This document shows, piece after piece, positions 18,634 to 36,931 of a stretch of DNA of 64,000 nt. Both the position numbers and the translations under genes were made by a program. Below the pieces are notes generated by a model. That model worked only from the letters and a program-made list of their open reading frames with translations. It was not told the DNA's origin and did not search any database. The DNA lies in assembly GCA_944323485.1 (NCBI GenBank), contig CALUSR010000001.1:66437-130436 (forward strand), given 5' to 3'. Within the stretch, counting starts at the first letter, position 1; each line of letters starts with the position of its first letter. This stretch comes from Candidatus Gastranaerophilales bacterium. GTDB taxonomy: Bacteria; Cyanobacteriota; Vampirovibrionia; Gastranaerophilales; CAJFVJ01.

Positions 18634-18710
18634 ATTTCTATTCTTTCTTTGCAAAAAGAAATATTCCGCTTCTATTTATAATAGCACATAACTCATCATC
18701 AACATTTTCA

Positions 18711-19220
18711 TTAAAAACAACCGTATAAACTTTTATACTCATCAACAACAGTATCGTTAATATCTGCAAAAATAATTTTATCAAAGCAGTCATCATGTGA
18801 AATAAACTCTTGAACTACACCTGATGCAATTTTACAGGCTTTATCAACGGGAAATCCGTAAACTCCGCATGAAACAGCAGGAAAAGCAATTGTTTTGATG
18901 TTATACTTTTTTGCCAGTTCAAGAGCTGTCTTATAACAGGATTTCAGAAGTTCACACTCATTTTTTCCCCCGCCGTACCAAACAGGACCGACTGTGTGGA
19001 TTACATATTTTGCCTGCAAATTATAACCCTTTGTAATCTTTGACTGCCCCGTTTCACACCCTCCAAGAGTTCTGCACTCTTCAACAAGCTTTCTGCCGGC
19101 AGCACGGTGAATTGCTCCGTCAACTCCTCCGCCGCCGAGAAGAGTCCTATTTGCCGCATTGACAATTGCATCAACCTGCAGCTTTGTAATATCACATTTT
19201 AAAATTTCTATTTCAGTCAT
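18711..19220 (-). CDS. macro domain protein (O-acetyl-ADP-ribose deacetylase/YmdB-like)
   Basis: 169 aa. [25 protein letters not shown] and VIHTVGP are typical macro-domain motifs. Confidence 0.85.
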
Positions 19221-19317
19221 AAGTTATTCTATTTTAACATCTTTTGACCGCAACAACATGAAATGTATAAAACGGATTTATCAAAAAATAAAGCAAATTT
19301 CATGGTAGAATTGCATC

Positions 19318-21999
19318 ATGAATACAAAAAACTCTGACGTTAAAATAAGAAATTCAATTAAAGAATTTGTCGAATACTGGAAAGATAAAGGCTACGAAAA
19401 AGGCGAAAGCCAAAAGTTCTGGCTTCAACTCTTGAGAGATGTCTTATGTATCGAACATCCGGAACAGTTCATTTCTTTTGAGGATAAAGTTCTCCTCGAC
19501 CATACAAGTTTTATTGACGCTTATATCCCTTCTACAAAAGTCTTAATTGAACAAAAAAGCTCTGATAAAGATTTAAATAAGGCTATAAAACAATCTGACG
19601 GCAGTTACCTGAACCCGTTTCAACAGGCAAAAAGATATATATCAGAACTTCCGCTTTCACAACACCCCAGATGGGTGGTAACATGCAATTTCCAAAAATT
19701 TCGTGTCTATGATATGGAACGCCCGAACGGTGAACCTCAGGAAATCTTATTGAAAGATTTGGAAAAAGAGTACTACAGACTCTCCTTTCTTGTAAACAGC
19801 GGAAGCGAACACCTGAAAAAAGAAATGGAAGTATCAATACAGGCAGGCAATATCGTCGGACTTCTTTATGATGCACTTTTGAATCAATATATTGATAAAA
19901 CAAGCGAAAAAACTCTCAAAAGTTTGAACATTCTCTGCGTCAGACTCGTTTTTTGTCTGTATGCGGAAGATGCCGGAATATTCCCGAAACATAACCAGTT
20001 TCTTGATTACCTCTCTCTCTTTGAAACAAACAGGATGAGAAAAGCCCTAATCGAACTGTTCGAAGTGCTAAACACAAAACCTGAAGAAAGAGACCCTTAT
20101 CTGGAACAGGAACTTGCTGCATTCCCCTACGTAAACGGCGGATTGTTTGCTGATGAACACATCGAAATCCCGAATTTCACGGACAAAATTCGAGATTTGC
20201 TCCTGAATAAAGCCAGCGCCGATTTTGACTGGTCAGAAATAAGCCCTACAATTTTCGGAGCGGTTTTTGAAAGTACCCTGAATCCTGAAACGAGAAGAAA
20301 AGGAGGAATGCACTACACCTCAATCGAAAATATACACAAAGTCATTGACCCGCTCTTTATGGATGAGCTCACTTCCGAATTTGAAGAAATCAAAAACTCC
20401 CCCCATGGAAAACTTCGGGATAAAAAACTTACAAGCTTTCAGGACAAACTTGCCTCATTAAATTTTCTTGACCCTGCCTGCGGCAGCGGGAATTTTTTGA
20501 CCGAAACTTATATTTCTCTGCGTAAACTCGAAAACGAAATTTTGTTCGAACTGCAAAAAGGTCAAATAACAATAGGACTTGTTACAAATCCCATAAAAGT
20601 TTCTATCTCCCAATTTTTCGGCATTGAGCTTAATGACTTTGCCGTAACTGTCGCCAAAACAGCTCTCTGGATTGCAGAATCCCAGATGATGAAGAAAACT
20701 GAAGACATTGTCCATATGGATTTGGATTTTCTGCCGCTAAAAACCTACGCTAATATTGTTGAATGTAATGCTTTGCGAATAAATTGGGAAGATGTCATTC
20801 CGAAAGACAAACTCAACTACATCATGGGCAACCCGCCGTTTGTGGGGTATTCTTTACAAACAAAAGAACAAAAAGAAGATATTATCTCAATTTATGTTGA
20901 TGAAAATGGCAAATCTTACAAAACTTCAGGTAAAATAGACTATGTTGCAGGCTGGTATTTTAAATCTTCAGAACTGATGCAAAACTCAAATATAAAAACA
21001 GCGCTTGTTTCAACAAACTCTATTACTCAGGGAGAGCAGGTTGCAGGTGTTTGGAAACCGTTGTTTGACAGATTTAATATCCATATTGATTTTGCACACA
21101 GAACTTTTAGATGGGATAGTGAATCAAATTCAAAAGCTCATGTCCATTGCGTGATTGTAGGTTTTAGCTGCACACCAAACAGAAATAAAAGAAAATTGTA
21201 TACAAATGAACGCATGCAGCTTGTTGATAATATTAATGCATATTTGATTGATGCACCGAATGTTTTTATAGAAAGCAAAAATCAACCGATATGTAATGTT
21301 CCCAAAATGACAACAGGCAACCGTCCTGCTGACGGAGGTCATCTTATAATAGAAGCCGAAGATTATGAGGAATTTATAAAAAAAGAGCCAAAAGCAAAAC
21401 AGTATATTAAACGCCTAACCGGAGCATTAGAGTTTATAAACAACAAACCTCGTTATTGTTTATGGCTTGTGGGAATAACTCCAAACGAATTAAGAGCAAT
21501 GCCAGAAGTTCTAAAAAGAGTCGAAGCATGTAAAGAAGACAGACTAAATGGAGCCGAGGACAGACAAAAACTGGCAGCTACTCCCTGGTTGTTCAGAGAG
21601 ACTAATTGTCCGAAATCATATATTATAGTTCCGGCAACATCTTCAGAAAATAGAAAATATATTCCTATGGGATTTCTAGATAATAATACAATAGCCACAA
21701 ATGCTGCAATTATCATACCAAATGCAGATAAATATTATTTTGGAATTTTGGAATCAAACGTACACATGGCATGGACAAAAGCTGTATGTGGCAGATTAAA
21801 GAGCGATTACCGTTATTCAAAAGATATTGTTTACAACAACTTTCCATGGTGCACCCCGACAGATGAGCAAAAAGCAAAAATCGAAAAAACTGCACAGGGA
21901 ATTTTGGACGCACGTGCCTTATACCCTGATTGCTCGCTTGCTGATTTGTATGATGAACTCACAATGCCTCCTGAACTCAGAAAAGCACATCAAGTGTAA
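19318..21999 (+). pseudogene. MmeI-family type IIL/IIG restriction-modification enzyme, 5' portion; C-terminal 44 codons displaced by an insertion
   Basis: N-terminal PD-(D/E)xK (FIDAYIPSTKVLIEQK), SAM motif LDPACGSGNFL and catalytic GNPPFVG. The frame reads ...ELRKAHQ, then V-stop inside foreign DNA. The in-frame continuation ENDKAVMEAYGF... is at 36692 onwards. Confidence 0.8.
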
Positions 22000-22043
22000 A
22001 GTGACACCAAATTTGAGAAAAAGTGACAGGGGAGTTTGAGAAA
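21998..22043 (+). repeat. tandem sub-terminal repeats (putative transposase binding sites), left end
   Basis: AAGTGACACCAAATTTGAGAAA is followed directly by AAGTGACAGGGGAGTTTGAGAAA. The shared parts are AAGTGACA and TTTGAGAAA. Confidence 0.5.
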
Positions 22044-22094
22044 AATAATACCCTTATATGTATTTGCTCATCCATAATTTATTTAATTTGTTTG

Positions 22095-22103
22095 TGCTAC
22101 AAT
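22095..22103 (+). promoter_or_regulatory. candidate extended -10 promoter element for the cargo operon
   Basis: TGCTACAAT (TGnTAnAAT) lies about 20 nt upstream of the AAGGAG SD and the ATG at 22124. Confidence 0.3.
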
Positions 22104-22123
22104 CTTAAAAAAGGAGTTAATCA

Positions 22124-22711
22124 ATGAAGTTAAATTCAGTAGATATTATTCTTTTACTTTTGTATAGCCCAGGTTACACTGACATGATTAACGAACCGAT
22201 AGATGGGCGAACAAAAATTACTAAAATGTTGTTTTTATTTGAAAAAGAGTTAGCTAAAAAGTTTAAATTAGATAAATTAACGGGAAATGAAGATATTTTT
22301 CGATTTACAGCATGGAACTTCGGTCCTATGTCAACAACGATATTTAAAAATTTAGATTTTTTAAAAAACATTGGCTTTGTAGAAAGCACTTATGCGACTT
22401 CTTATAGTGTTACCGCAGAAGAAGTAAGTGAATATAATCATTATTGCAATGAGTTAATTGAAAACGAAAATAATATAACAGAGTATAAAAGTGAGAAATT
22501 TTGTCTTACTGCAAAAGGAATAAAATTTATTGATGATAAGGGCAAATATCGTTTATTATCAGATAATCAAAAAAAATATTTAAGAGAGTTTAAATCTAAG
22601 CTCAATGGTGCAAATTTGAGAGATATTTTACGATATGTCTATATGACATATCCAAATTATACAGAAAAATCGATAATTAAAAATGAGGTGTTGGGAGATA
22701 ATGATGTCTGA
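22124..22711 (+). CDS. SocA/Panacea (YwgA-like, DUF4065) domain protein, candidate antitoxin
   Basis: 195 aa. GRTKITKMLFLFEKE...FRFTAWNFGPMSTTIFKNLDFL matches the Panacea pattern (K.QKLLYL...F.AW..GPV...vY). AAGGAG SD. Confidence 0.5.
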   Translation: MKLNSVDIILLLLYSPGYTDMINEPIDGRTKITKMLFLFEKELAKKFKLDKLTGNEDIFRFTAWNFGPMSTTIFKNLDFLKNIGFVESTYATSYSVTAEEVSEYNHYCNELIENENNITEYKSEKFCLTAKGIKFIDDKGKYRLLSDNQKKYLREFKSKLNGANLRDILRYVYMTYPNYTEKSIIKNEVLGDNDV

Positions 22712-23276
22712 TTTACAAATTGTGCCAGTAGTTTATCCTATAATTTCAGGGGTTCTTACTTTAGGAATATCATTATTCAGTTTATTTTCTCCATTTGTTG
22801 GTACAGAAATAGAGTTTACAAAAGATGCAAATTGGTATCTTTCCAAATTACAAGGTATGCGTATAGACAAATTAAAAAGGTTTATTTCTGAAGTTTTAAA
22901 TTTAAAAGTCGCAGAAGATAATTCCGAAGATAATAGAATGCCTTATGTTGTAGATATATATGAGTATTTCTCTACAGACATGGAAGAAATTATCCATCTT
23001 GAAAATAAAATAAAGCATTTTCTCAATAAATATAGAATAACAATGACTTCTTTTATGATTGTTCTATGGTTGTCCGTTACGTCAATTATTATTAGTTTAA
23101 TATTTAAACAAATAATAAAGTTAAATATTTTTTTAAATTACATTTTTTATTTTGCCATATTATTAGTATTAGTACAACTATTTAATATTATATATCTTCG
23201 TTACTTGTTTATAAATTCTCAAAATACGTATCAATTGCACATTTTTAGAGGAAAAGAAAAATGGAATATGAAATAG
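22701..23276 (+). CDS. three-TM membrane protein, candidate toxin/effector
   Basis: Start at the ATG at 22701 (GGGAGA SD), overlapping the upstream stop by 11 nt. One N-terminal TM (VVYPIISGVLTLGISLFSLF) and two C-terminal TMs (FMIVLWLSVTSIIISLIF; IFYFAILLVLVQLFNIIYL). Confidence 0.5.
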   Translation: MMSDLQIVPVVYPIISGVLTLGISLFSLFSPFVGTEIEFTKDANWYLSKLQGMRIDKLKRFISEVLNLKVAEDNSEDNRMPYVVDIYEYFSTDMEEIIHLENKIKHFLNKYRITMTSFMIVLWLSVTSIIISLIFKQIIKLNIFLNYIFYFAILLVLVQLFNIIYLRYLFINSQNTYQLHIFRGKEKWNMK

Positions 23277-23695
23277 ATATGGTTAATAAAGCAATTAAAT
23301 TTTATACTAATTTAGGATATAAAGTTTGTACAGAAGTTCCATTTTTACATCGTTCTATTGATTTAGTATATGAAAATAATGGGCAGTTAAATTCTGTTGA
23401 ATTTAAAAGAAGGGACTGGAAAAGAGCTTATGCACAAGCAAAAACACATATTTATGGATCAGATAAGGTTTATGTATGCATATTAAAGCCGTCAAAAGGT
23501 ATATCGCAAGAACTTAAAGATTATTTTAAGGATAGCCCGATAGGTCTATTAGTTTTTGATGAAACAAATACAAATTCTTTAATAGAAGAAATTTTTCCAG
23601 CTTCTAATGAACATAAAAAATGGAATATAGGTCAACAATGGTTAAAAAAAGCTTTTAACAAAAGACTCGAGGAGGAATTATGCCACAACAGTTAA
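23261..23695 (+). CDS. small PD-(D/E)xK nuclease-fold protein
   Basis: 144 aa. TEVPF...SIDLVYENNGQLNSVEFK gives an E...D-x13-E-x-K arrangement. GAGGAAAAG SD. 16-nt overlap with the upstream gene. Confidence 0.45.
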   Translation: MEYEIDMVNKAIKFYTNLGYKVCTEVPFLHRSIDLVYENNGQLNSVEFKRRDWKRAYAQAKTHIYGSDKVYVCILKPSKGISQELKDYFKDSPIGLLVFDETNTNSLIEEIFPASNEHKKWNIGQQWLKKAFNKRLEEELCHNS

Positions 23696-25065
23696 AGCAT
23701 TTAATGCGATTAGGTACTCATGGTGAAAAAAAATATTTTAAAGATTTTAAAGAATATTATGATGCGGTAATCATTAATGCAAGCATGATTGCTCATACTG
23801 TTAATTCAATGTCTACTTTTTTAGGTTGTGAACTTTCAAAACCATTTATCATTGATCCTCAAACATATGCGTTTCAATCATATACGCATCTATTACAACA
23901 AAGTAAAAACAAAAAAGATATTTCAGATGTTAAAGTAAAAAAATCTTTTTGCACTTTAATAGAAAACTATGGCGAAATGTTAAAAAAGATTATATTTGAT
24001 GAAAAACGCTCTATTAAAAGTTCTGATTTTAAGAATGATGATAACCAAAATTTGAAAGATTTTTGTAAAAATGTTTTAAAATATCAATTAGAAACAATCA
24101 CATCAGAAACACAAAATAATTCAGAATATAGTGAATATATTGAATATGAAATTGAAAATTGCAAAGATAATTTATCTTTAACTTTAGTCCCTGCTTTTTT
24201 AATTGCTCCATATTTTTATATGACACCTAATACATATTCGGATTGGATTGATATAAATATAGATGCTATAAATATTTCAAAAGAATTAAATTCCAAAGAT
24301 ATTGAAATTTATGCACAAATTGTAATTGATAAAGATATATTGTTAGATGATAGTAAAATTGAAGAATTGTGTGATAAATATAATTCATCAAGTGCGGAAG
24401 GATTTCTTATTTGGTTAGATAAATTTGATGAAAAAGAAGTAAGTGAAATTTATCTTGAAAAATTTATTAATTTTTTAAAATTATTGAAATGCAATGGAAA
24501 ACCGATATATCAAGTTTATGGTAGTTATTTTTCTATTGTTTTGACAAAAGATATACTTTCAGGAGTTTGTCATGGTATGGAATATGGTGAAAATAGAGAT
24601 GTTTATCCTGTAGGTGGCGGGATTCCTGTTTCGAAATTTTATTATCCAGCATTACACAAACGTTTATTATATCGTGATGCTTTAGATTTATTATTGAGAA
24701 ATGGATATTTGGAAGATTTAGAGGTTTACAATTCTAATGTATGTAATTGCAAAAATTGTCAAGAAATTATTAATACTCCAATTGAAGATTTTTCAAAATA
24801 TGGTGATGTTAATTCAACAACATTTAAACGAAAATCAGGCAATAGAGAATCTACTGTAACAATGGATTATCCAACTAATGATGCTAAAGATCTATGTTTA
24901 AGACATTATTTATACAATAAAATTACAGAATATAAATATGTTGAAAGCAAAAGTTATTCAGATTGTGCCGAAGATTTAATTCAATCATATAATAAGTACT
25001 ACGATTATTTAGGAGACAATGTTGATTATTTGAAGACTTGGCATAATATAATATTAAAAATTTAA
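23680..25065 (+). CDS. 461-aa unknown protein with tRNA-guanine transglycosylase/DpdA-like motifs (tentative)
   Basis: PFIIDPQTYAFQ (cf. TGT TDSGGFQ), GVCHGMEYGENRD (cf. GVDMFDCVMPTRN), CNCKNC (CxCxxC zinc motif) and a downstream LRHYL (cf. YLHHL). GAGGAGG SD. 16-nt overlap with the upstream gene. Confidence 0.3.
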   Translation: MPQQLKHLMRLGTHGEKKYFKDFKEYYDAVIINASMIAHTVNSMSTFLGCELSKPFIIDPQTYAFQSYTHLLQQSKNKKDISDVKVKKSFCTLIENYGEMLKKIIFDEKRSIKSSDFKNDDNQNLKDFCKNVLKYQLETITSETQNNSEYSEYIEYEIENCKDNLSLTLVPAFLIAPYFYMTPNTYSDWIDINIDAINISKELNSKDIEIYAQIVIDKDILLDDSKIEELCDKYNSSSAEGFLIWLDKFDEKEVSEIYLEKFINFLKLLKCNGKPIYQVYGSYFSIVLTKDILSGVCHGMEYGENRDVYPVGGGIPVSKFYYPALHKRLLYRDALDLLLRNGYLEDLEVYNSNVCNCKNCQEIINTPIEDFSKYGDVNSTTFKRKSGNRESTVTMDYPTNDAKDLCLRHYLYNKITEYKYVESKSYSDCAEDLIQSYNKYYDYLGDNVDYLKTWHNIILKI

Positions 25066-25068
25066 AGT

Positions 25069-26229
25069 ATGATGAAAAAAAATAAAAAATTAAGAGTATT
25101 TGAAGCTTTTGCAGGATATGGTAGTCAACGAATGGCTCTTCGTAATATTGGTATTCCTTTTGAAATAGTTGGAATTTCCGAAATTGAAGGAGAAGTTATT
25201 CGCTCTTATGCTGCTATTCATACTGATTTTTTAGAAAAAAGAAAAAATTTAGATAAATTTGTTAATCTTGATAAAGAAGAACTAATTGCTTTTTTAAAAA
25301 AACTCAATGTTCCGCTTGATTATAAAACATTTGTAAATAGAGCTCCTAAAATGAAAATAGAGCAGCTCAAAGAAATGTATCTTGCAAATAAATTAATTAA
25401 TAACTTTGGTGATATTACAAAAATTGATCCTGAAAAATTACCAGATTTTGATTTGTTTACATATTCTTTCCCTTGTCAAGATATCTCTGTTGCAGGATAC
25501 CAAAATGGTTTAAATGAAAGCTCCGGAACCAGATCTTCGTTGTTATGGGAATGTTGCAAAATCATAGAGGCAAAAAAACCTAGATATTTAATGATGGAAA
25601 ATGTTAAAAATCTAGTGGGCTGTAATCACAAAGCAAACTTTTTGAAGTTTTTAAGATATCTTGAAACTATTGGATATAAAAACAGATGGGCTGTTTTAAA
25701 TGCAAAAGATTATGGCACTCCACAACATCGAGAAAGAGTTTTTTGTATAAGTATTTTAGATGAAATGAATTATTTTAGATTTCCTAAGCCAGAACCCTTA
25801 ACAACAAAGTTAGCAGATATTTTGGAACAAGATGTTAATGAAAATTTCTACTTAAAAAATAATCAATTCATGGATTGCCCTATAGTACAAGATTATAGTT
25901 ATTGTATAGATTCCAACTATTGGAAAGGCTCTACATTAAGTAGTTTTTTAGAAAAACGCAGACGTCAATTAGTTACAGATAAAATTAATGAATATGGTGA
26001 ATATATGGTACGTCGTTTAACTCCGCATGAAGCTTGGAGATTAATGGGTGTATCTGATGAAGATTTTCACAAAGTTTCTTCTATAATGAGTAATACTAGT
26101 TTATATAAGCAGGCTGGAAATAGCATTGTAGTAAGTGTTTTAGAACGTATTTTTGCTAATTTATTTATTAATTACGATACAACTATACAAGACCCAGATT
26201 TTGCAGTACAATTACCTTTATTTAACTAA
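25069..26229 (+). CDS. DNA (cytosine-5)-methyltransferase
   Basis: Motifs FEAFAGYGS (I), SFPCQDIS (IV), ENVKNL (VI), QHRERVF (VIII) and GNSIVV (X). Confidence 0.9.
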   Translation: MMKKNKKLRVFEAFAGYGSQRMALRNIGIPFEIVGISEIEGEVIRSYAAIHTDFLEKRKNLDKFVNLDKEELIAFLKKLNVPLDYKTFVNRAPKMKIEQLKEMYLANKLINNFGDITKIDPEKLPDFDLFTYSFPCQDISVAGYQNGLNESSGTRSSLLWECCKIIEAKKPRYLMMENVKNLVGCNHKANFLKFLRYLETIGYKNRWAVLNAKDYGTPQHRERVFCISILDEMNYFRFPKPEPLTTKLADILEQDVNENFYLKNNQFMDCPIVQDYSYCIDSNYWKGSTLSSFLEKRRRQLVTDKINEYGEYMVRRLTPHEAWRLMGVSDEDFHKVSSIMSNTSLYKQAGNSIVVSVLERIFANLFINYDTTIQDPDFAVQLPLFN

Positions 26230-26248
26230 ATTTTAATAGAGGTATTTG

Positions 26249-27058
26249 ATGACTGCAAAAGAAGATATCATAGAATTGTTCCATAAAAACGTAAAAGGCA
26301 AAAGACCGAATGTCGAAGGAACAAATGAAAGACACGATGGTAGACAAGGACAATGGCTAGAACATCAATTTGGTATTCATTCTAATGACTATAATGCAGC
26401 TGACTTATGGGGATATGAGTTAAAAAATGAAACGACATCCAAAACAACATTTGGAGATTGGTCAGCAAATGAATATGTTTTTAATAATCCGGAATACCGT
26501 GATTATTTTGCAGGCACTAGTAAATTTGAAAAAAGAGAAGATTTTTTAAGAATATTTGGTAAACCTAATGAAGAAAAAGGTGGAAGATGTTCTTGGTCTG
26601 GTTCTCCTTGTCCCAAAATCAAATGCTTTAATGATTTTGGACAAAAACTTGTTATTGATAAGAATAAAGATATTTTGGCTATATACTCATACAGTCAAGA
26701 TAAAAGAATAAACAAAGCTGAAATAGTACCCAAAAGTTTGCAGTTAGAAGAATTAGTGTTAGCACGTTGGTACGGTGAAATATCACCAACTACTAAAAAA
26801 AGAGATAAATGTTTAAAAGCCAAATTAGAAGATAAATTTAATGATAAAGGTTGGTTTACATGTAAAACAGATGCGACGGGATGTTATTGTAAAATCTGTT
26901 TTGGCAAACCAATGAATTATGACGAATGGTTGGAGCTAGTAAAACAAGGAATTGTATTCTTTGATAGTGGTATGTATCAAGGCAACAAAAGACCTTATTC
27001 ACAGTGGCGTGCAAATAACAATTTTTGGGATAGTTTAATAGAAGAAACTTATGAATAA
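26249..27058 (+). CDS. type II restriction endonuclease (PD-(D/E)xK, MvaI/BcnI- or ScrFI-like)
   Basis: About 270 aa, located between two m5C MTase genes. GQWLEHQFGI...AADLWGYELK carries a D-x5-E-x-K catalytic motif similar to MvaI/BcnI-type enzymes. Confidence 0.55.
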   Translation: MTAKEDIIELFHKNVKGKRPNVEGTNERHDGRQGQWLEHQFGIHSNDYNAADLWGYELKNETTSKTTFGDWSANEYVFNNPEYRDYFAGTSKFEKREDFLRIFGKPNEEKGGRCSWSGSPCPKIKCFNDFGQKLVIDKNKDILAIYSYSQDKRINKAEIVPKSLQLEELVLARWYGEISPTTKKRDKCLKAKLEDKFNDKGWFTCKTDATGCYCKICFGKPMNYDEWLELVKQGIVFFDSGMYQGNKRPYSQWRANNNFWDSLIEETYE

Positions 27059-27131
27059 ATTGTGTCGATGTGATAAAAAAATATGCTTAATATAATAGCT
27101 TATTGCTCTTTCTTATGCTAATATTCAAGGT

Positions 27132-28079: not shown

Positions 28080-29739
28080 TTTTTATAAGTTTTTCACTAT
28101 CCACCTTAAATTCTTTTGGTAAGAAGTTCAAAAAACTTTTTACTGAATATATATTATTAATTAACCCTTTAAATTTATAGTTTTCGTCCAATATATAACC
28201 TGAAAATTCATCAATTAATTTATATACATAGCCTTTATATTTATCTTTATACAAAATACCTATTTTTTTAGGAATATTATGTTCTAGATAACATATAAAT
28301 AAAGGCGAGTTTTTTGTAACATTAAAACTTGGTTTAAGATTTAAATAATTAAATTTATTAGAATAATTACCATCTTTTTTTCTTTTGTATACAATTTCAG
28401 AAGTTAAAGCATCTGTAACATATACGAAACTCGTTTCAATTTTTTGAAAGCCAATACAAACTTTATTTAATTTACATTCATAACAAGCTAATGGATTTTG
28501 TTTTCTGAATTCACCATTACCATTGGTTCCATACCTTTGACACCATAATAATTCCATATATTCTCTTATATTTGTTTTATTTGCTTGACTAGTTAACCAT
28601 ATTAGCCGTTCTAATTTTCCTAAATTATTAAATTGGTTAAAAAAATCATCTTTATTATCTATACCAAGAGCAAATCTATAAAATGTATCAATCCAAGTAT
28701 CAATAGGTATGACATTTGAATTTGCAAAGCCCTGTTGTATGAAACACGCTACTACTTTTTCAGAACATCCCTTTATTCCTGCATTATAAAATTTTTCAAA
28801 AAATACTTTATTCCATAAATTATAATCTGTATTCATAATAGTCATGATTGACCATATAAAGAAACAAGCACGCCACGAAAATCGATTAAAAGCATCGATT
28901 AAAAGCTCAATTTGATATTTATCTCCATTATTAAAGTCTATATTTGTGTCTTTGACCCAAGGTACTAACTTACTTTTTGTAAATTTTTCTTTATTTTGTT
29001 CCCAAGCATGTGGAATAGCTTTAAAAACAATGTCATCTATTTTTACTATTTGTGTATAATCTAATTTCCAAACTTTATACATAGACTTATATAAAGTTTC
29101 AAATTTAGAAAATTTTGTAAAATTTTGTTCTCTTACATCTTTATATATAGGCAATAAATAAAATTCTAAAAAATTCCATTGAGGAATTTCTTTATTATCT
29201 ATAGAAATTTTTTCACCAAAAGTACTTAAAAAATTATAAAGCATGCGCATTTCACTTTGCCTGCCTGTTTTAGGGCTAAATGCTGCAACAAAACGAATTA
29301 TTGAATATATCTCCTCATAAAAACGTCCAAAAGGTAATATATTTCCATATATGTTTGAACAAATATCAAATAAACTTGATAAAAAAGATTTATATTTTTG
29401 TGGAGATGCATCTATTATGTCTTGTTTTGTAACAGGATCAGATATTCCTATTCTATTTTTTAATTCTGTTCTTACAATTTCCCTAAATTTTGAATTTTCA
29501 GAAGCATTCAAATTTATATTGCTATAAAATAGAAAAATTACATTACAGGTTCCATTATTTTTATATTTTTGAGCTTTCATAGTTACAGGAAAACCATATA
29601 TTCTGGTATTATCTATAATTGTATGTACATATACAATTGGAAATCCTGGTAAATCAGGATAAAATAATTCTATTTTTGGTAACCATTTGACAGGGACGTT
29701 GTCAATCTCTATTTCGCTTGAATATTTGATTTTTTCCAT
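28060..29739 (-). CDS. 559-aa protein with an HhH-GPD/FeS-cluster-loop DNA glycosylase-like domain
   Basis: AGIKGCSEKVVACFIQQGFANSNVIPIDTWIDTFYRFALGI parallels the EndoIII sequence LPGVGRKTANVVLNTAFG...VDTHIFRV. LLWCQRYG...NPLACYECKLNKVC parallels LHGRYTC...PRCGSCIIEDLC. It converges on and overlaps the second MTase gene by 20 nt. Confidence 0.4.
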   Translation of the reverse strand: MEKIKYSSEIEIDNVPVKWLPKIELFYPDLPGFPIVYVHTIIDNTRIYGFPVTMKAQKYKNNGTCNVIFLFYSNINLNASENSKFREIVRTELKNRIGISDPVTKQDIIDASPQKYKSFLSSLFDICSNIYGNILPFGRFYEEIYSIIRFVAAFSPKTGRQSEMRMLYNFLSTFGEKISIDNKEIPQWNFLEFYLLPIYKDVREQNFTKFSKFETLYKSMYKVWKLDYTQIVKIDDIVFKAIPHAWEQNKEKFTKSKLVPWVKDTNIDFNNGDKYQIELLIDAFNRFSWRACFFIWSIMTIMNTDYNLWNKVFFEKFYNAGIKGCSEKVVACFIQQGFANSNVIPIDTWIDTFYRFALGIDNKDDFFNQFNNLGKLERLIWLTSQANKTNIREYMELLWCQRYGTNGNGEFRKQNPLACYECKLNKVCIGFQKIETSFVYVTDALTSEIVYKRKKDGNYSNKFNYLNLKPSFNVTKNSPLFICYLEHNIPKKIGILYKDKYKGYVYKLIDEFSGYILDENYKFKGLINNIYSVKSFLNFLPKEFKVDSEKLIKTNLAQD

Positions 29740-29790
29740 AATAGAATTCTACCATAAATTTTTAGTATAATAATTTTGGGGAGATTTCTT

Positions 29791-30135
29791 ATGGATATTG
29801 AATTTTTAAAAGAAAAAACAGTACAATTCAGAGATGCAAGAGATTGGAAGCAATTCCATACCCCTAAAAATCTAGCAATGGCATTATCTGTTGAAGCCTC
29901 AGAATTAGTTGAATTATTTTTGTGGGATGACAATACCAGTTCTTTTAGTATGACAAGAACTAAAAATGAACAACTGCAAGAAGAAATGGCAGATGTATTA
30001 ATATATCTTTTATCAATGTCGGATATTCTTGATATAGATTTATCTAAAGCCGTATTAGACAAATTAGAAAAAAATAATAAAAAATATCCTGTTGAAAAAT
30101 CAAAAGGATCTTGTAAAAAATATACAGAACTATAA
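29791..30135 (+). CDS. MazG-like nucleoside triphosphate pyrophosphohydrolase
   Basis: The ATG at 29791 has a GGGGAG SD. FRDARDWKQFHTPKNLAMALSVEASELVELF and EEMADVLIYL are typical MazG/dCTPase-like motifs. Confidence 0.75.
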   Translation: MDIEFLKEKTVQFRDARDWKQFHTPKNLAMALSVEASELVELFLWDDNTSSFSMTRTKNEQLQEEMADVLIYLLSMSDILDIDLSKAVLDKLEKNNKKYPVEKSKGSCKKYTEL

Positions 30136-30288
30136 TGATGTTTAAATATATTTTGATTTTGAGTAATGAATTACCATCCGAAAAAAGAATTAGACTGAAT
30201 AAGTGTGAAAAATATCGGATTAAAAAAGTTATTTAAATAGTATTCAAAATAAAATTATGTTTTAATGATACGTTTTACATGTAATCTC

Positions 30289-30316
30289 TTGATATTTATG
30301 TGCTTGAGAGTAATAT
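30289..30316 (+). promoter_or_regulatory. candidate sigma70-type promoter
   Basis: TTGATA, a 16-nt spacer, then TAATAT, upstream of the small-ORF cluster. Confidence 0.3.
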
Positions 30317-30335
30317 ATGTCATTGCCGATAAGAG

Positions 30336-30560
30336 GTGGCAATGATTGAGTTAGGCAAAAAATATAAACTTAAAAAGATTAAAGATTTTAGAAACTCTGA
30401 TAATGCATATTTCAAAGTAATTAGTTTATACAACTTTGACACTGTAATCTGCGAAAACGATTACGGAGAAAGATTTGTATTTATGAAAGAGTTTTTAACT
30501 GATTCAAATATGCCTGATGAAACTTATTCAGATTTAATGCTTGAAAGGAAAGAATCATGA
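30336..30560 (+). CDS. hypothetical small protein
   Basis: 74-aa ORF (GTG; alternative ATG at 30342). Its stop overlaps the next start (ATGA). Confidence 0.35.
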   Translation: MAMIELGKKYKLKKIKDFRNSDNAYFKVISLYNFDTVICENDYGERFVFMKEFLTDSNMPDETYSDLMLERKES

Positions 30561-30763
30561 CGAAAAAAGATTATGCACTTTACGGTACAAAGATTTTAAA
30601 CCACAAGACAGGTGAAATCGGATTATTAATTAAAACTTGGAAAAACAAGTATGCCGATGCAGAAATTGATTATGCAACTTGTGTTGATAAGCTCGGCAAA
30701 CGCTACAATATCAAACTTGATGAGATTTTACCGTTGGAGGAAACTGATGATTTTGAAAAATAA
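30557..30763 (+). CDS. hypothetical small protein
   Basis: 68-aa ORF, translationally coupled to the upstream ORF. Confidence 0.35.
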   Translation: MTKKDYALYGTKILNHKTGEIGLLIKTWKNKYADAEIDYATCVDKLGKRYNIKLDEILPLEETDDFEK

Positions 30764-30987
30764 ATTAACAAGAGAAACCATAGAAATAACTTATCCTGAA
30801 TTTAGAAAAAAGTTTGCAAAAGAGATAAGTACAGCTTTTGAAAGTTATTGAAGAACACAACTAAATAAATATTCTTATAATTTCAAAGATGATAATTCAA
30901 TGGAATACAACTTTTATTTTCAATTACAGTGGAATTTCAATCATTTTGGGAATTCTGTCTGGTATATAGAAAGGCTATGAGGGAAAA

Positions 30988-31194
30988 ATGAAAAAATATT
31001 ACTTAGAAGATAAAGAATTTCAATTTCTGTACGCTAAAAGCAAAAGAATTTACCATTCGTTGGTTGTAATAGATTATTTTTGCAGTAACTATAATGAAAT
31101 AGAAGAAATTGCGAATATATCGGGTATAATTAATTTCATAAAAAATGAAGCAGATATGCTATATTCAAAAATGATTAATTGTGAGCTTGATTAA
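30988..31194 (+). CDS. hypothetical small protein
   Basis: 68-aa ORF with a GAGGGAAAA SD. Confidence 0.35.
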   Translation: MKKYYLEDKEFQFLYAKSKRIYHSLVVIDYFCSNYNEIEEIANISGIINFIKNEADMLYSKMINCELD

Positions 31195-31319
31195 ACCCCG
31201 TTCAAAAAGTGTTCAAAAGGCTCTGTATTGAATTTATTTTAAAAATACAAGGGATTTTATTATAAAATAAAAATAGCCTGCTTAAATTTGGTTTAAACGA
31301 GGCTATTTGATAGAAGGTT

Positions 31320-31940
31320 TTATACATCTTGTAATCTTGATATCCTGCGAACTTCATATTCCGGAATTTGGTATTTTTCTCTTATGTCATCTTCGTAATT
31401 TATATAAAGGTCATAGAGTTTGTAGTTAAAAAATGATTTATCGCTATTTAGACAAGGTATTCTTTTTATGTCTTTATAACTTATTGCAGGAACATAAGAT
31501 TTATCTGAGCCTTGCAACATAAATTCCAAAAGGATATATCTGGTTATAACTTCCGCAAATTTTGGAGCTATCTCCATATATTCTTTAGCAACTGTTTTCA
31601 TTATTGATTTGATATAATCTTGAAACGCTTCTTGTTTCTTTACTCTGGCATTATATATATTTATTTGCAGGCTTTTCTTTTTATTATCTACACCTTTAAT
31701 TAAATCTTGATTAACCTCTATTTCTTCTTCAATTTTCTTTAGTCTTTTATTGATTTTAGAAACATCTTTCCCTTCTGCAAGTAAAGCAGGACGCTCCTCT
31801 TTTAGTTTTACGATTTCATCTTGCAGGGTTTTGATTTTATCTTGTGCTTGCTCCTTTCTTTCATCCATTGCTTTTATTTCGCCAAAAAATTTTCTGCATT
31901 CCGAAAATACTCTTTCCATTTTTTCCTTTGCATCTGTCAT
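31320..31940 (-). CDS. coiled-coil protein, unknown function (transposon module)
   Basis: 206 aa. The N-terminal half is a heptad-rich Lys/Glu coiled coil. It is the last gene of the minus-strand transposition block. Confidence 0.45.
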   Translation of the reverse strand: MTDAKEKMERVFSECRKFFGEIKAMDERKEQAQDKIKTLQDEIVKLKEERPALLAEGKDVSKINKRLKKIEEEIEVNQDLIKGVDNKKKSLQINIYNARVKKQEAFQDYIKSIMKTVAKEYMEIAPKFAEVITRYILLEFMLQGSDKSYVPAISYKDIKRIPCLNSDKSFFNYKLYDLYINYEDDIREKYQIPEYEVRRISRLQDV

Positions 31941-31955
31941 ATAAGCTCCTTTCTT

Positions 31956-32156
31956 TTACTTTAAATTTCTGTAATTAACACCAAGCTCATAAAATATGAA
32001 AATTTCAAAATCTCTGTTATATCTTTCTCCATTTATGAGTCTTGTAATGTATGACTCCGACATTTTTAACTTCTTAGATAAAGCTTTTTGAGTAATTCTT
32101 TTATATGCCAAGGCTCTTTTAATATTTTCCATTCTTTTCTTAAGAAACATCAGCAA
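31956..32156 (-). CDS. XRE/Ner-like helix-turn-helix protein
   Basis: 66 aa. ITQKALSKKLKMSESYITRLINGE HTH. Confidence 0.55.
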   Translation of the reverse strand: MLMFLKKRMENIKRALAYKRITQKALSKKLKMSESYITRLINGERYNRDFEIFIFYELGVNYRNLK

Positions 32157-32161
32157 ACTCC

Positions 32162-32836
32162 TTAATTAAACACTATTCTGTTTAAACTGAATTCGTTTCT
32201 CGGAGTAAGTCTTTTAACTTGAAAACTAAAACTGTTATTTGTAAAACCTTTATGATTTGCATAACTTAGCACTTGTTTTAATAAAGCCATTGTATTTTTA
32301 AATCTTCTCGGACTTAAATCCTTTTCTTCGCAATATCTAAAAAAGTCTTTTATAACAGAATCATCAATTTCTTCAGGTCTTTTTGTTTTGAAGTACGGTA
32401 AAATATGGTTCTTTAATAATGAGCGATAAGTTTGTATGGTACTTGGAGTGCAAAATTTTGCAGCATATTTTTCAAGAAAATTGTTTATAATTTCATAAAA
32501 AGAAAAATTTTCGCTTAGTTCATTATGTGGTACAAAAAATCCGTAATTTTTAGGCTTGTCGGACTTTTCTTTTTTCTCTTTTTCTTTCTGTTTTTGTTTA
32601 AATTTATCATATTCGCTTCCTTCAATAAAAGGTTTTACACGTGTTGTTTTAGGCGGTTCAAAGTTTTCAAAATCTTTGATAAAAAGATAGCCTTGTGTAT
32701 CTTTTTTAATCACGTTTTCTGTAATCAATTGTTCAAGAAGTTGGTTTAATTCTTCTTTTGGCATTTCTGCAAGCATAAAAATTTCATTGTAAGTAAAAGC
32801 TTTTAATTTTCTTGCAAGATAAATAAGTTTTTCCAT
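32162..32836 (-). CDS. DNA-binding protein: winged-helix N-terminus plus integrase-type SAM-like core-binding domain, no catalytic domain
   Basis: 224 aa. Lys-rich linker. The C-terminal TIQTYRSLLKNHILPYF...IKDFFRYCEEKDLSPRRFKNTMALLKQVLSYA resembles the N-terminal SAM-like domain of tyrosine recombinases. Confidence 0.45.
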   Translation of the reverse strand: MEKLIYLARKLKAFTYNEIFMLAEMPKEELNQLLEQLITENVIKKDTQGYLFIKDFENFEPPKTTRVKPFIEGSEYDKFKQKQKEKEKKEKSDKPKNYGFFVPHNELSENFSFYEIINNFLEKYAAKFCTPSTIQTYRSLLKNHILPYFKTKRPEEIDDSVIKDFFRYCEEKDLSPRRFKNTMALLKQVLSYANHKGFTNNSFSFQVKRLTPRNEFSLNRIVFN

Positions 32837-32848
32837 TTGTTCTCCTTT

Positions 32849-33538
32849 CTATTTCAATAAAAACCGCATATCTTTTAAGGTTATAATTGATAAATCATTT
32901 GCTTTGGCATAATTTTCGGCTTTATCTATAATCTTAACTATCTGTCGAAATCTGTTTTCCGTATTTTGTATGTGTTCTATAGCGGAATTATCAAATTTAA
33001 TTTCTGATAGCTCATTGATAAGATTTTTTGTGTCTTCAACCGAAAATTTTTGAAACTGTAATATCTCGGATAACCTGTCATACAAATGCTTATAGCGTTT
33101 TATTTTTTTATCAGCATAACTCATACCGATTAGAATAATAGGTGTATGTGTTCTGTCATGGATATCTCGGAGCATTTCAATTGTTGATTTTTCTTGGGTT
33201 AAATAATCAATTTCATCAACAATAATTAATCGTGGTCTTTTAATCAATTCACGTGTTATTTGTTCAAATATGTCCGCTGTTCTATAAAAAGGACTATCGC
33301 CGAGTTCTTTTACTATTTCTTCCAGCAGCCATTTTGTTGACATAGATTGTTTTGCACTCACAAATATCGCATCATCTTGGTGATTTGATACCCACCAAAT
33401 AGCAGCTCGAGATTTTCCAAGACCTGGCTCTCCATATATTAATGCCATCCCAGGTACACCTTGTGCTCTGTTTTGCAGGTTATTTATGGTGCTGATAAAA
33501 TTTTTCACGTTCTTTGTATTAACAAATACAGGCTTCAT
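32849..33538 (-). CDS. AAA+ transposition ATPase (MuB/TniB/TnsC-like)
   Basis: Start at the ATG at 33538 (AAAGGAG SD). Walker A GEPGLGKS and Walker B LIIVDEID. Located immediately downstream of the transposase. Confidence 0.75.
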   Translation of the reverse strand: MKPVFVNTKNVKNFISTINNLQNRAQGVPGMALIYGEPGLGKSRAAIWWVSNHQDDAIFVSAKQSMSTKWLLEEIVKELGDSPFYRTADIFEQITRELIKRPRLIIVDEIDYLTQEKSTIEMLRDIHDRTHTPIILIGMSYADKKIKRYKHLYDRLSEILQFQKFSVEDTKNLINELSEIKFDNSAIEHIQNTENRFRQIVKIIDKAENYAKANDLSIITLKDMRFLLK

Positions 33539-35498
33539 TCTTCTCCTTTCTATAAATTTGTTTATATTCTTCACTTAATTCGTATTCTTTAAACCAAGTG
33601 ACATCCTTGTCATTTTCAAATCCGTTTTGCAAATGCCATTCGTAGCGTTGGTACTTAAATTCAAAATTTGGTCTGCCATCTGTTGGTTCTGGATCTATAT
33701 TTCTTGTTATTTTAGGTTGTTGAACCGTTTCAATTTTAGGTATTTCTTGCCAATCCAATGTTTTAATATTTTGGGATTTAAGATAATTTTTCAGTTCTTT
33801 TACGGTTTGTTTTTCCAAACGTTTTTGTTGTCGCAGTTTAAATTTCAATTCTTCCTGATCTTTGATATCTCCTAAATAATTTGCCATAGGGTGAATTGGT
33901 ATAACTCTTTGAGCTTCGCAAATAAATTCATTTTTAAGTGTATAAATTTTTATTTTTGTTAAGTCAGATAAGCTGTATTTAATAATTACTCTGCCTTTTA
34001 AACCGTATAAACAATCATTGTAATAATCAGCTTTTAAAAACCTGATTCCGTTTCTTTGTATATTTTTAATTTCACAACTCAGCATTAAATCATCAAGTTT
34101 TTCTAAATCAACACCACTCCCTTTTCCTTCTTCAAGAACTTCGCCAATGGTTTTGCCTTTTACATTAGGGCATTTAAGAGTGCGGTGAAAACGCATGTAT
34201 GCTTCCAACATTTGTGACAGTTCTTCTATCGTAGGTATAAATTGAATATGGTGTTCTTTATGGAATTTCTCATTCCTTTTCATATATGCAGGTTGGTCTT
34301 TTATTGACGAACCGACAAAAGAAGGTAATAACCTTTCAAACCCGTCTTGCAGTTCTCTGAAAAATCTTTCAATAACTTTTGCTCTTGCATTATAAGGTTG
34401 AGCAAAAACTGGTGTAATATCAAGTTTATTAAATAAGCCGTTAATACCGCTTTCGTGTAAATCTCCGGTGAAAAATTTAGCTCGAAAAGCTTTCCCGTTA
34501 TCCTGATAACAAATTTTAGGAATTTTTCCTAAATTAATAATAGAATTTCTTAAAGCTGAAGATATGGCTTGAGTGTTTTCTTCAAGCATAATTTCATAGC
34601 CAACCAAAGCTGTTGATTTCCAATCGAGATAACCGATTAAAGTCGGTCTGCATGGTCTTCCCGTAAACGGATTTAAACATTGAACAGATAATCTGTGACC
34701 GTCTGCTACTAAAACATCTCCGACTTCTAATTTTGAAATATCTCTTATTATGTATGGTTGAACTTTATCTCTTAAAGCTTTTTGTCCTTCTCTTGCAAGT
34801 ATCCATTTATCATAATTATTGCGTTTAAAATTCTCTGCATATCTTCTAAAATTTCTTTCACTGCTTGGAGATTCCAAACCTTTCTTTTCAAGTATATACT
34901 TGGCAAGTTTGGTTGCTTTACCTATATTTGTTTTATTAGGAGTTAATAATAAGGATTTGAAAACTAATTCTTCTTCATGAGTAAGTTGAGGATTAGATTC
35001 TTTTTCTCCATAATCATAATTTGGAATAAGCTTTGTATAGTCGTCATTTCCTTTGATAGCTTTATGCCATCTATAAATAGTTCCGATAGAGATTTTTCCT
35101 AAGATATTAAACAAATAAGAATATATTTTTCCGTCATTATAAATATCAATAAATTCTTTTCCTGCTTGAGTTTTATTCTCAGAAATTTTCTTATAATCAA
35201 CCCATAGATTTACTAAATCATATCGAGCTAAGGCAATTTGTCGAGCATGAGGAGGTGTAATAGAGTTTTTTCTCAAAACAGGTTCCCTATTTTTCTCAAT
35301 TTCACATTTACTTTTCTCAAAATCGATTAAATTTTGAGTCGTTTCATTTAATGCAGGAACAAATATTTCATACATCAAACCCTTCTTACCGTTGACTTGG
35401 CGAACAACATATTTATTATTAGCAACTCCTTTTCTGATAGCACGTGGAGTTACTCCTTGTATTCTTGCAAGTTCATTAACTGTCAACCAGTCTTTCAT
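33519..35498 (-). CDS. DDE transposase (Mu A/Tn552/TnsB-like, rve core)
   Basis: 659 aa. N-terminal HTH (LTVNELARIQGVTPRAIRK). DDE triad candidates in LVADGH, YQDNGKAF and KVIERFF. Confidence 0.8.
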   Translation of the reverse strand: MKDWLTVNELARIQGVTPRAIRKGVANNKYVVRQVNGKKGLMYEIFVPALNETTQNLIDFEKSKCEIEKNREPVLRKNSITPPHARQIALARYDLVNLWVDYKKISENKTQAGKEFIDIYNDGKIYSYLFNILGKISIGTIYRWHKAIKGNDDYTKLIPNYDYGEKESNPQLTHEEELVFKSLLLTPNKTNIGKATKLAKYILEKKGLESPSSERNFRRYAENFKRNNYDKWILAREGQKALRDKVQPYIIRDISKLEVGDVLVADGHRLSVQCLNPFTGRPCRPTLIGYLDWKSTALVGYEIMLEENTQAISSALRNSIINLGKIPKICYQDNGKAFRAKFFTGDLHESGINGLFNKLDITPVFAQPYNARAKVIERFFRELQDGFERLLPSFVGSSIKDQPAYMKRNEKFHKEHHIQFIPTIEELSQMLEAYMRFHRTLKCPNVKGKTIGEVLEEGKGSGVDLEKLDDLMLSCEIKNIQRNGIRFLKADYYNDCLYGLKGRVIIKYSLSDLTKIKIYTLKNEFICEAQRVIPIHPMANYLGDIKDQEELKFKLRQQKRLEKQTVKELKNYLKSQNIKTLDWQEIPKIETVQQPKITRNIDPEPTDGRPNFEFKYQRYEWHLQNGFENDKDVTWFKEYELSEEYKQIYRKEKNEACIC

Positions 35499-35723
35499 GT
35501 TATTCTCCTATTTTGGTATACAAAATTTGCACCATAAATCACACACAACATTAGCTCGAAAGTCCTTAATATTGGAGTTTTAAAGGTGTTTTATTTAATT
35601 TTCGTATCATAGATTTTATTAAACAAATGTAAATGCTTAAGTTGATTTTTAATAAAATTTATGATATATTTTACACAAAGTATAAAACATTAAATAAATT
35701 TTGTCAATCGATTAGGTTACCAA

Positions 35724-36248
35724 GTGAACGAAAACGAAAAAATTAAACAAATCAGAAAATCTTTAAATCTTACTCAACAGGAAATTGCAGACAGTATAGG
35801 AGTAAGTAAACAATATTTTAGCAGAGTAGAAAACGGAATAACCGAACTTAGTAAAGAAAAAGCTACTATGTTATGTAATAATTACGGAATTTCTCTTGAT
35901 TGGTTACTTTGTGATAAAGGTGGCATGTTTATAAACGATAATACGATTACAAACAACCTATTGAATGACACCGATAATATACAAGGTGTATCAAGTATAT
36001 TAGGTGCGTTTTCAACTTACTTGGAAGTAGTATTTCCAATTATAGAATCAGAACATCCGAAAGCTTTAATAAGAGATAAAATAAGAGCTACTCAAGAACT
36101 TTTCTTTAATGATTTATTTAAAAGTGATAGAGTTTTGAAAACTCGTAAAGAACTAAAAAGTATATTGGAAAAAGATTTTGCGGATAAAGAGAAAGTTTTA
36201 AATGCTTATTACAAAGCTTATGTAGAAAGATGTGAAAAAAATAATTAA
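35724..36248 (+). CDS. XRE-family repressor (Mu c-like position)
   Basis: 174 aa. LTQQEIADSIGVSKQYFSRVENG HTH. Divergent from the transposase and reading toward the element end, as the Mu c repressor does. Confidence 0.65.
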   Translation: MNENEKIKQIRKSLNLTQQEIADSIGVSKQYFSRVENGITELSKEKATMLCNNYGISLDWLLCDKGGMFINDNTITNNLLNDTDNIQGVSSILGAFSTYLEVVFPIIESEHPKALIRDKIRATQELFFNDLFKSDRVLKTRKELKSILEKDFADKEKVLNAYYKAYVERCEKNN

Positions 36249-36559
36249 TGTCTGTTTGTCTTGACAATTTAGATATTTTTTAAATTTTTTCTCTCTTTTT
36301 CTTCTGTTCTTCTCTATATTTTTGTATTTTTATAGGTAAAATCTGCCTCGAATTGCTATTTTGATTTTTATTTTTACTTGATTATTGACTTCAATTCGGT
36401 TCTTAAAATCGGAATGAGTTTGAAATTATAAAGGAACTTAGTTCCACCTTAAGTTCCCCCTTGACTTATTGTCTTTTATTAGGACTTTTGAAAAATATCC
36501 GAATTTAACCGTTATATTTAGCTTTCGTGCATAGCAAATTCCAAAATCAAAAATTTTTA

Positions 36560-36676
36560 AGGACAATGATGACCTAATAAAGTCCAATTTGCCCATTTTT
36601 TGTCAATTTTAAAAAATAGGCTCTATCTTAAACACGTTTTACCTTTCAGCCCCTGTTCCCTTATTATCATTGTCCT
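36560..36676. repeat. inverted 11-mers near the right end of the element
   Basis: AGGACAATGAT is at 36560-36570 and its exact reverse complement ATCATTGTCCT is at 36666-36676, 10 bp from the inferred terminus. Confidence 0.5.
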
Positions 36677-36688
36677 ATTAATTTATAT

Positions 36689-36823
36689 CAAGAAAACGAC
36701 AAAGCCGTTATGGAAGCCTACGGTTTCAAAAAACGGGATGAAAATGACAAACTCCGCTGGCTTACAGAGCAGGAAACCGTCGCAGAACTGATGAAAATGT
36801 ATCTTGAACTTACAAACAAATAA
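36689..36823 (+). pseudogene. displaced C-terminal 44 codons of the MmeI-family gene
   Basis: Reads QENDKAVMEAYGFKKRDENDKLRWLTEQETVAELMKMYLELTNK-stop. It joins ...LRKAHQ at 21993 in frame once the insert and one copy of ATCAAG are removed. Confidence 0.8.
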
Positions 36824-36827: not shown

Positions 36828-36850
36828 AAACCGCCTGATGCGGTTTATTT
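36828..36850 (+). terminator. rho-independent terminator of the original MmeI-like gene
   Basis: AAACCGC-CTGAT-GCGGTTT hairpin followed by a T-rich stretch. Confidence 0.6.
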
Positions 36851-36855: not shown

Positions 36856-36931
36856 TGGTGGAGGTTAGGAGACTCGAACTCCTGACCCTCTGCGTGCAAA
36901 GCAGATGCTCTACCAACTGAGCTAAACCCCC
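36856..36931 (-). tRNA. tRNA-Ala (anticodon UGC)
   Basis: 76-nt cloverleaf folded by hand: acceptor GGGGGTT/AACCTCC with G3:U70, anticodon loop TTTGCAC, T-loop TTCGAGT, and an encoded CCA. Confidence 0.9.

Follow-up and report, generated by a model that had tools for sequence, protein, structure and literature searches.

We analysed a 64,000 bp stretch of a Candidatus Gastranaerophilales (Melainabacteria) chromosome (contig CALUSR010000001.1, positions 66,437 to 130,436; here called the window, in whose coordinates all features are given), in which an MmeI-family (Type IIL) restriction-modification gene is interrupted close to its 3′ end. We conclude with high confidence that a 14,693 bp phage-less Mu-type transposon recently entered a resident gene in its 3′ part, and that the gene had been intact until then. 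Direct observations cover the split and its exact boundaries, the empty allele, the genes present, the 5 bp duplications and a family of related elements with variable cargo.

The larger part of the interrupted gene is an 893 aa open reading frame (ORF; 19318–21999, plus strand). It consists of 892 native codons followed by GTG (Val) and TAA, which the first bases of the transposon end supply, and the protein terminates ...PPELRKAHQV. Pfam assigned all five MmeI domains to this ORF, in agreement with the MmeI-type layout that had been read from the sequence originally. MmeI_N (6e-37), MmeI_hel (5e-22), MmeI_Mtase (2e-86) and MmeI_TRD (2e-74) are complete, and the match to MmeI_C covers only positions 3–46 of the 83 in the model, so the C-terminal helical region is incomplete. 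The nuclease motif is D67...E78-Q-K80, and the PD-(D/E)XK residues D67, E78 and K80 align with D70, E80 and K82 of MmeI. Methyltransferase motif I, LDPACGSGNF, is at residue 384 and motif IV, NPPF, is at residue 505. Enzymes of the MmeI family cleave approximately 20 nt from their recognition site and protect the host by methylating one strand only.

The orphaned 3′ end of the gene lies at 36693–36823 (plus strand) and comprises the last two bases of the Glu893 codon, 42 whole codons and the stop codon. Translation of 36689–36823 yields QENDKAVMEAYGFKKRDENDKLRWLTEQETVAELMKMYLELTNK, which begins QENDKAVMEAYGF and ends ELTNK before the stop codon. When 19318–21993 was joined to 36692–36823, a single protein of 935 aa was recovered. 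The original prediction, that deleting 21995–36692 restores one continuous frame, holds, and the deleted segment corresponds precisely to the element together with one copy of its 5 bp target-site duplication (TSD). The predicted length of 936 aa was one residue too long, as the Gln codon within the duplicated TCAAG had been counted twice, and the number of residues lost is 43 rather than 44. These 43 residues make up approximately half of the C-terminal helical bundle. In an alignment to the crystallized MmeI of Methylophilus methylotrophus (PDB 5HR4), they correspond to approximately residues 871–919, within the bundle at 826–919. The bundle limits are those of PMC4833311.

The restored protein has the five-domain layout described for MmeI (PMC4833311, PMC2731913), namely a PD-ExK nuclease, a helical spacer, a gamma-class N6-adenine methyltransferase, a target recognition domain and a C-terminal helical bundle; the allele in the window differs from MmeI in lacking its last 43 residues. 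After joining, the MmeI_C match extends to model positions 3–80 of 83, and the restored protein matches MmeI over residues 10–908 (E = 4e-197). The alignment is collinear through the joint (...LKAHQKLDKAVDSVYGF in MmeI and ...LRKAHQENDKAVMEAYGF in the restored protein), which identifies the 3′ fragment as the C-terminus of the family, as had been proposed. No homologue ending at ...AHQV was found, and the top 120 proteins are all 926–957 aa long. At 78 of 80 genomic homologue loci the match runs through query residue 929–935, and the other two loci are on short contigs where it stops near the contig edge. The C-terminal stretch lost from the window allele is kept in all the homologues examined, the most distant of which are 56% identical. 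When PLSDB plasmids were searched using megablast, no match to the MmeI-family gene was returned.

Both empty and occupied versions of the insertion site are present in public assemblies. Exact-sequence look-ups found the uninterrupted 935 aa protein in at least 24 public contigs and the truncated 893 aa protein in four or five, and the first 892 residues of the two alleles are identical. Three contigs carrying the intact gene (L090, L091 and L092), from the same species, were compared with the window. They share 96.5–99.6% nucleotide identity with its flanks, aligning to 13319–21992 and then from 36687 onwards, with nothing in between, and they have a UvrD-like helicase, a heavy-metal P-type ATPase, a macro-domain protein and a tRNA-Ala in common with it. 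The same gene order, with an uninterrupted 935 aa orthologue, was found in the related species Candidatus Adamsella avium (L010) at approximately 90–93% nucleotide identity. On the occupied side, an independent assembly (L096) is 99.9% identical to window positions 13756–30970, which span the left junction and 9 kb of insert sequence. Genomes as similar as 99.2–99.6% differ in whether they carry the insertion. As empty and occupied alleles were both found and short homologues were not, we conclude that the gene is a resident member of the MmeI family that has been truncated, and that the split is genuine, arose recently and varies within one species. Neither an assembly artefact nor a naturally short form can account for it.

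The source of the window is probably a metagenome-assembled genome, and the GC content of the element (28%) differs from that of its flanks (37–38%). These features would fit a chimera of assembly or binning, in which the likeness of the C-terminal fragment to the MmeI family would be accidental, and we consider such an origin extremely improbable. Both junctions carry a precise 5 bp duplication of a site that is single-copy in the empty alleles, the left junction recurs in the independently assembled L096, and the truncated protein is found in more than one contig. Every residue of the reconstruction agrees with a real protein; a chance match is excluded because that exact 935 aa sequence exists as an uninterrupted gene in public assemblies.

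The inserted transposon occupies 21995–36687 (5′-TGTAAAGTGACACC...CCTATTAATTTATA-3′) and is bounded by TCAAG at 21990–21994 and again at 36688–36692. Its low GC content relative to the flanks favours a foreign origin. Empty sites contain a single copy, which is TCAAG in Ca. A. avium and TCAGG in L090, the difference being a synonymous single nucleotide polymorphism. A duplication of ATCAA around an element at 21994–36686 was also considered, and was ruled out by two further copies that resolve the one-base ambiguity and set the register one base rightward. These are a 12,334 bp element with a perfect CTTAT duplication (L083) and a 12,642 bp element with a perfect ATAAC duplication (L084). Together with the TCAAG of the window, they represent three independent insertions with perfect 5 bp duplications of unrelated sequences.

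No terminal inverted repeat emerged from a generic repeat search of the insert, and the element ends were defined only through comparison with other copies. The cargo-side end (21995–22046, plus strand) is a segment of approximately 52 bp that is conserved in L083, L084 and L097–L100, beyond which the sequences diverge into different cargo. It contains two direct repeats of roughly 23 bp, AAAGTGACA-N6-TTTGAGAAAA, that are presumed transposase-binding sites. At the other end, the transposase-side end region (36249–36687, minus strand) is 439 bp, and its terminal 52 bp are an imperfect inverted repeat of the cargo-side end, with 27 of the 52 bases identical and ACAGGGG at the same offset. The cargo-side end starts with TG. 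The opposite end starts with TA in the window copy and L083, and with TG in L084 and L081.

The core genes occupy the right part of the element, and all of their ORFs are intact. Moving inward from the right end, the first (35724–36248, plus strand) encodes a 174 aa CI/c-type helix-turn-helix repressor, faces away from the transposase gene and towards the element end, and has a conserved position in relatives. It is followed by the gene for a 659 aa MuA-like DDE transposase (33519–35498, minus strand), which matches Mu-transpos_C in Pfam (2e-13) and, over its full length, phrog_310, a family of transposable-phage transposases (1e-88). Its D266, D333 and E377 are in register with D269, D336 and E392 of MuA in an alignment to PDB 4FCY. 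The exact 659 aa sequence was absent from the protein collection, where the entry P0121 is 98% identical and 656 aa long, and the start-codon call may differ. Next is a 241 aa MuB-like AAA+ ATPase (32849–33574, minus strand; AAA_22, 2e-21, and TniB), which matches phrog_296, annotated as 'DNA transposition protein' (6e-55), TnsC structures (7e-7) and the MuB structure 8XVB (1.5e-5), and is presumed to be a target-DNA activator.

Beyond the ATPase gene is that of a 224 aa protein (32162–32836, minus strand) containing only the N-terminal SAM-like DNA-binding domain of tyrosine recombinases, with no catalytic domain. At the corresponding position in a more distant relative with a transposase approximately 50% identical (L101, 5166–8432), there are two full-length tyrosine recombinases of 540 and 544 aa. 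By analogy, the 224 aa protein may be a decayed cointegrate resolvase. The core continues with a 66 aa helix-turn-helix protein (31956–32156, minus strand), a conserved neighbour in relatives, and a 206 aa protein (31320–31940, minus strand) that has only weak SMC/Rad50-type coiled-coil matches and is conserved in close family members. Three small ORFs of 74, 68 and 68 aa (30336–31194, plus strand) lie at the border between core and cargo, which is placed near 30584 because homology to L083 runs from the transposase-side end to there.

No matches to head, tail, packaging or lysis proteins were found when the ORFs of at least 100 aa and four shorter ones, the only ORFs below 100 aa that were scanned, were compared with Pfam and PHROGs, and the same was true of the relatives. 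Pfam and NCBIfam likewise gave no match in the element to a TnsA endonuclease or to a target selector of the TniQ/TnsD or CRISPR type. With a Mu-like core, a 5 bp duplication and imperfect ends, and with no phage structural genes, TnsA, TniQ or resolvase found in it, the insert is best described, from its sequence, as a phage-less Mu-type transposon. Several observations weigh against this description. In direct comparison the transposase resembles MuA only marginally (E = 0.003), and TnsB of Tn7 to a similarly slight extent (E = 0.012). The inverted repeat is also weak, its 27 matching bases in 52 giving p of approximately 0.002 on shuffling, with 0.05% of interior 52-mers matching equally well. 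In addition, one element end starts with TA and not the canonical TG, and neither a resolvase nor TnsA was found in the element. Because the direct similarity to MuA is marginal, the label 'Mu-type' is based on the profile matches, the gene order and the 5 bp duplication.

Like phage Mu, the element has a DDE transposase with a Mu C-terminal domain, an AAA+ ATPase gene immediately downstream, an opposite-strand repressor gene directed towards the nearby end, 5 bp duplications at non-specific sites and, less clearly, imperfect 5′-TG/TA ends. It differs in having extra conserved core genes (those for the SAM-like-domain protein, the small helix-turn-helix protein and the 206 aa protein), in lacking structural, packaging and lysis genes, and in its size of 12–15 kb, the remainder of which is exchangeable defence cargo. 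A Mu-like prophage has a genome of approximately 35–40 kb. The transposase, ATPase and repressor all match transposable-phage families and are in the order seen in phage Mu, and a decayed and immobile Mu-like prophage remnant, rather than an autonomous transposon, could account for this. However, such a remnant is very unlikely, given the lack of structural, packaging and lysis matches among the ORFs scanned, the intact core ORFs and the polymorphism of the insertion between nearly identical genomes. The other copies argue in the same direction, as elements of 12.3–14.7 kb (the window copy, L083 and L084) share the same ends, carry different cargo and are flanked by perfect 5 bp duplications at unrelated sites, and one identical transposase protein is found in at least three chromosomal contexts. 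Moreover, IMG/VR contains no match to the end motif, and even the closest transposases from phages share only 22–28% identity with that of the element.

The transposon in the window also shares features with Tn7-like transposons, whose defence-rich cargo is well documented (Benler et al. 2021, PMC8649781). Both have a transposase of the same superfamily with an AAA+ regulator, and a core at one end with variable, defence-rich cargo. As differences from Tn7-like transposons, no TnsA, TniQ/TnsD or attachment-site specificity was found, the insertion sites being unrelated, and the element has a repressor gene at its end. Phage-less Mu-like transposons that include CRISPR-associated transposase systems of types I-A and V-F have been described (reviewed in PMC11656645). 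These are likewise cargo-carrying and phage-less with a Mu-type transposase, a likeness drawn from their description, but the element in the window has no CRISPR/Cas genes or RNA-guided targeting, and its cargo is restriction-modification and other defence genes.

Transposases 66–98% identical to that of the window element are located in the same conserved core in other assemblies, and the named records among these are Gastranaerophilales or Cyanobacteriota. The core and ends are conserved across this family of elements of approximately 12–15 kb, and the cargo differs in nearly every copy. Comparison of the window element with that of L083 revealed 97.7% identity over the 6.1 kb core and 94% over the last 52 bp, with nothing shared in between. 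L083 and L085 carry genes for a C5 methyltransferase, an NgoFVII-type endonuclease and Z1, with GmrSD/HEPN or AIPR, and L100 was grouped with them from ORF sizes only. The cargo of L084 includes Mrr, DUF2971, two C5 methyltransferases and HNH, and that of L081 includes HNH and Eco57I-type enzymes. Three methyltransferases, HATPase and TPR-CHAT are found in L086–L089, with SIR2 in L086. L102 and L104 contain HNH, Eco57I-type and C5 methyltransferases, a BpuSI-like enzyme and a Gabija-like pair, and L103 has a SNF2 helicase and a MutH-like protein. A search with the far-end motif identified four more insertions, all starting 5′-TGTAAA and with unrelated flanks.

No preference for a target sequence or for defence genes was apparent among the eight insertion sites examined. 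A tRNA-Ala is found near the element end in L081, as it is in the window, and targeting of MmeI genes or of tRNA-Ala neighbourhoods was considered. This was rejected, as the L081 junction contains no MmeI fragment and the other seven flanks are unrelated. Separately, the 3′ end of the L081 tRNA-Ala (8327–8402; ...CTCCTAACCTCCACCA) is repeated approximately 220 bp downstream, at approximately 8610–8640, beside the transposon copy. This repeat looks like an attachment-site scar of an unrelated integrative element. In L097 (446–485), the transposon end abuts a GC-rich flank, unlike the AT-rich flanks seen in Gastranaerophilales, and the family may be present in other hosts.

The size of 12–15 kb, the repressor-controlled Mu-like early region and the absence of conjugation or packaging genes would suit a satellite that replicates by Mu-type transposition and relies on a helper transposable phage to be packaged and transferred, as would the spread to unrelated flanks, including the GC-rich one in L097. 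This explanation is purely speculative and we regard it as improbable, since general library scans of the element ORFs recognized no capsid-interference, packaging or helper-sensing genes, and neither the comparison of phage transposases nor IMG/VR revealed a helper phage with related ends. Returning to transposons, the copies described here may constitute an undescribed lineage of phage-less Mu-type elements dedicated to shuttling defence islands, present in gut Melainabacteria and perhaps in other hosts. In such elements, the 6 kb core and the 52 bp far end would bracket a slot in which cargo turns over fast (restriction-modification, Gabija-like, HEPN, SIR2, CHAT and genes of unknown function). 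We offer this proposal tentatively, and judge its chances to be a little below even. No description of a Mu-type family with restriction or defence cargo was found in the literature, of which our search had incomplete coverage and yielded only reviews that refer to Mu-like CRISPR-associated transposons, and the family may merit being described separately.

The cargo region of the window element extends from 22124 to approximately 30584. It opens with a block of four plus-strand genes (22124–25065) in which every ORF overlaps the next. The first product, of 195 aa (22124–22711), has winged-helix and weak SocA/Panacea-like Pfam matches that are below the curated cut-offs, and matches PDC-M19A, a candidate-defence protein in PADLOC (E = 1e-9). 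The second, of 197 aa (22683–23276; 29 bp overlap with the preceding ORF), contains hydrophobic stretches, the third, of 144 aa (23261–23695), contains a D...E-x-K-like pattern seen by eye only, and the fourth is 461 aa (23680–25065). The block may be an uncharacterized defence or toxin–antitoxin module.

Downstream, a 386 aa C5 cytosine DNA methyltransferase (25069–26229, plus strand; PF00145, 3e-73; MTase_II, 1e-165) adjoins a 270 aa Type II restriction endonuclease of the LlaMI/MvaI-BcnI type (26246–27058, plus strand; PF09562, 2e-72; REase_II, 2e-113), and the two make up a Type II restriction-modification pair. A second C5 DNA methyltransferase, of 315 aa (27132–28079, plus strand; PF00145, 3e-109), is most like M.HhaI (7e-70). 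Thus, the element does bring its own restriction-modification genes, as was suggested originally. The gene for a 559 aa protein (28060–29739, minus strand) is convergent with that of the second methyltransferase and overlaps it by 20 bp. Its position makes this protein a candidate novel restriction endonuclease that would partner the HhaI-like methyltransferase. The 559, 461, 197 and 144 aa proteins had no match in Pfam, NCBIfam, PHROGs or PADLOC, and the 461 aa protein had none in any library used; the 559 aa protein also had none among PDB sequences. The last recognizable cargo gene encodes a 119 aa MazG-like nucleotide pyrophosphohydrolase (29776–30135, plus strand; PF12643, 5e-18).

From what is known of phage Mu, we infer that the MuA-like transposase would bind the repeats at the two imperfectly inverted ends and, with the MuB-like ATPase, capture target DNA. 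The 3′ ends of the element would then be joined to target phosphates staggered by 5 bp, and gap repair would yield the TCAAG duplication. In the enzyme, Val and a stop codon take the place of the last 43 residues, and the severed 3′ fragment of the gene stays untranslated downstream of the element. Loss or destabilization of the truncated enzyme is likely, because the stretch removed is kept in all homologues examined.

An alternative, less probable though of some weight, is that truncation has left the enzyme active, the half-bundle at the C-terminus being dispensable and the insertion neutral for MmeI-type restriction and methylation. The nuclease, spacer, gamma-class methyltransferase and target recognition domain are all complete, and the first 892 residues are those of the intact allele. 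The C-terminal helices have been described as of unknown function (PMC2731913), and M.TaqI lacks a C-terminal bundle (PMC4833311). Against this, the residues lost (approximately MmeI 871–919) are retained even in homologues with 56% identity, and a halved helical bundle would usually destabilize a protein. If the gene has been inactivated, this should have occurred without post-segregational killing, because cleavage and protection are combined in one polypeptide in MmeI-family enzymes (PMC2731913), and the tolerance of the insertion would thereby be explained. With two C5 methyltransferases, a LlaMI-like endonuclease and other defence-like genes arriving as cargo, the host has probably traded one restriction specificity for others.

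The surroundings of the insertion site contain a few further features. A hairpin at 36828–36846 lies between the MmeI-family gene and a convergent tRNA-Ala(TGC) gene (36856–36931, minus strand), which is a flank marker conserved in the empty-site loci. The good terminator that was predicted to follow the MmeI-family gene does correspond to this hairpin. However, a terminator was called on the minus strand only, and because the plus-strand T tail is weaker the hairpin is at best a bidirectional terminator. A tRNA-Ile(GAT) gene (38330–38403, minus strand) is 1.4 kb from that of tRNA-Ala(TGC), with a 200 aa ORF between them. This pair of tRNAs is usual in the rRNA spacer, and no rRNA was found in the 64 kb window using Rfam. 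On the other side, the macro-domain protein gene (18711–19220) adjoins the MmeI-family gene, and the UvrD-like helicase encoded nearby (12579–15725) is 1,048 aa long with an N-terminal extension of approximately 540 residues.

Events in which a transposon lands in a restriction gene are ordinary, and this one opens no long-standing question. It is a clear-cut example at the population level, as the filled and empty sites differ only by the element and its 5 bp duplication and the protein alleles are otherwise identical. It shows turnover of the defence repertoire within one species, where the DNA that hits one specificity also brings in others. The transposon family is more useful as a lead than the event itself. 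It comes from a gut phylum that has received little study, its ends are delimited sharply enough to be surveyed systematically, and cargo proteins that belong to no known family, including the 461 and 559 aa proteins and the block at 22124–25065, are candidates for new defence functions. The family represents a Mu-type counterpart of the defence-laden Tn7-like elements. If these transposons are indeed dedicated shuttles, their insertions would remodel the restriction repertoire of the host, both adding and destroying systems.

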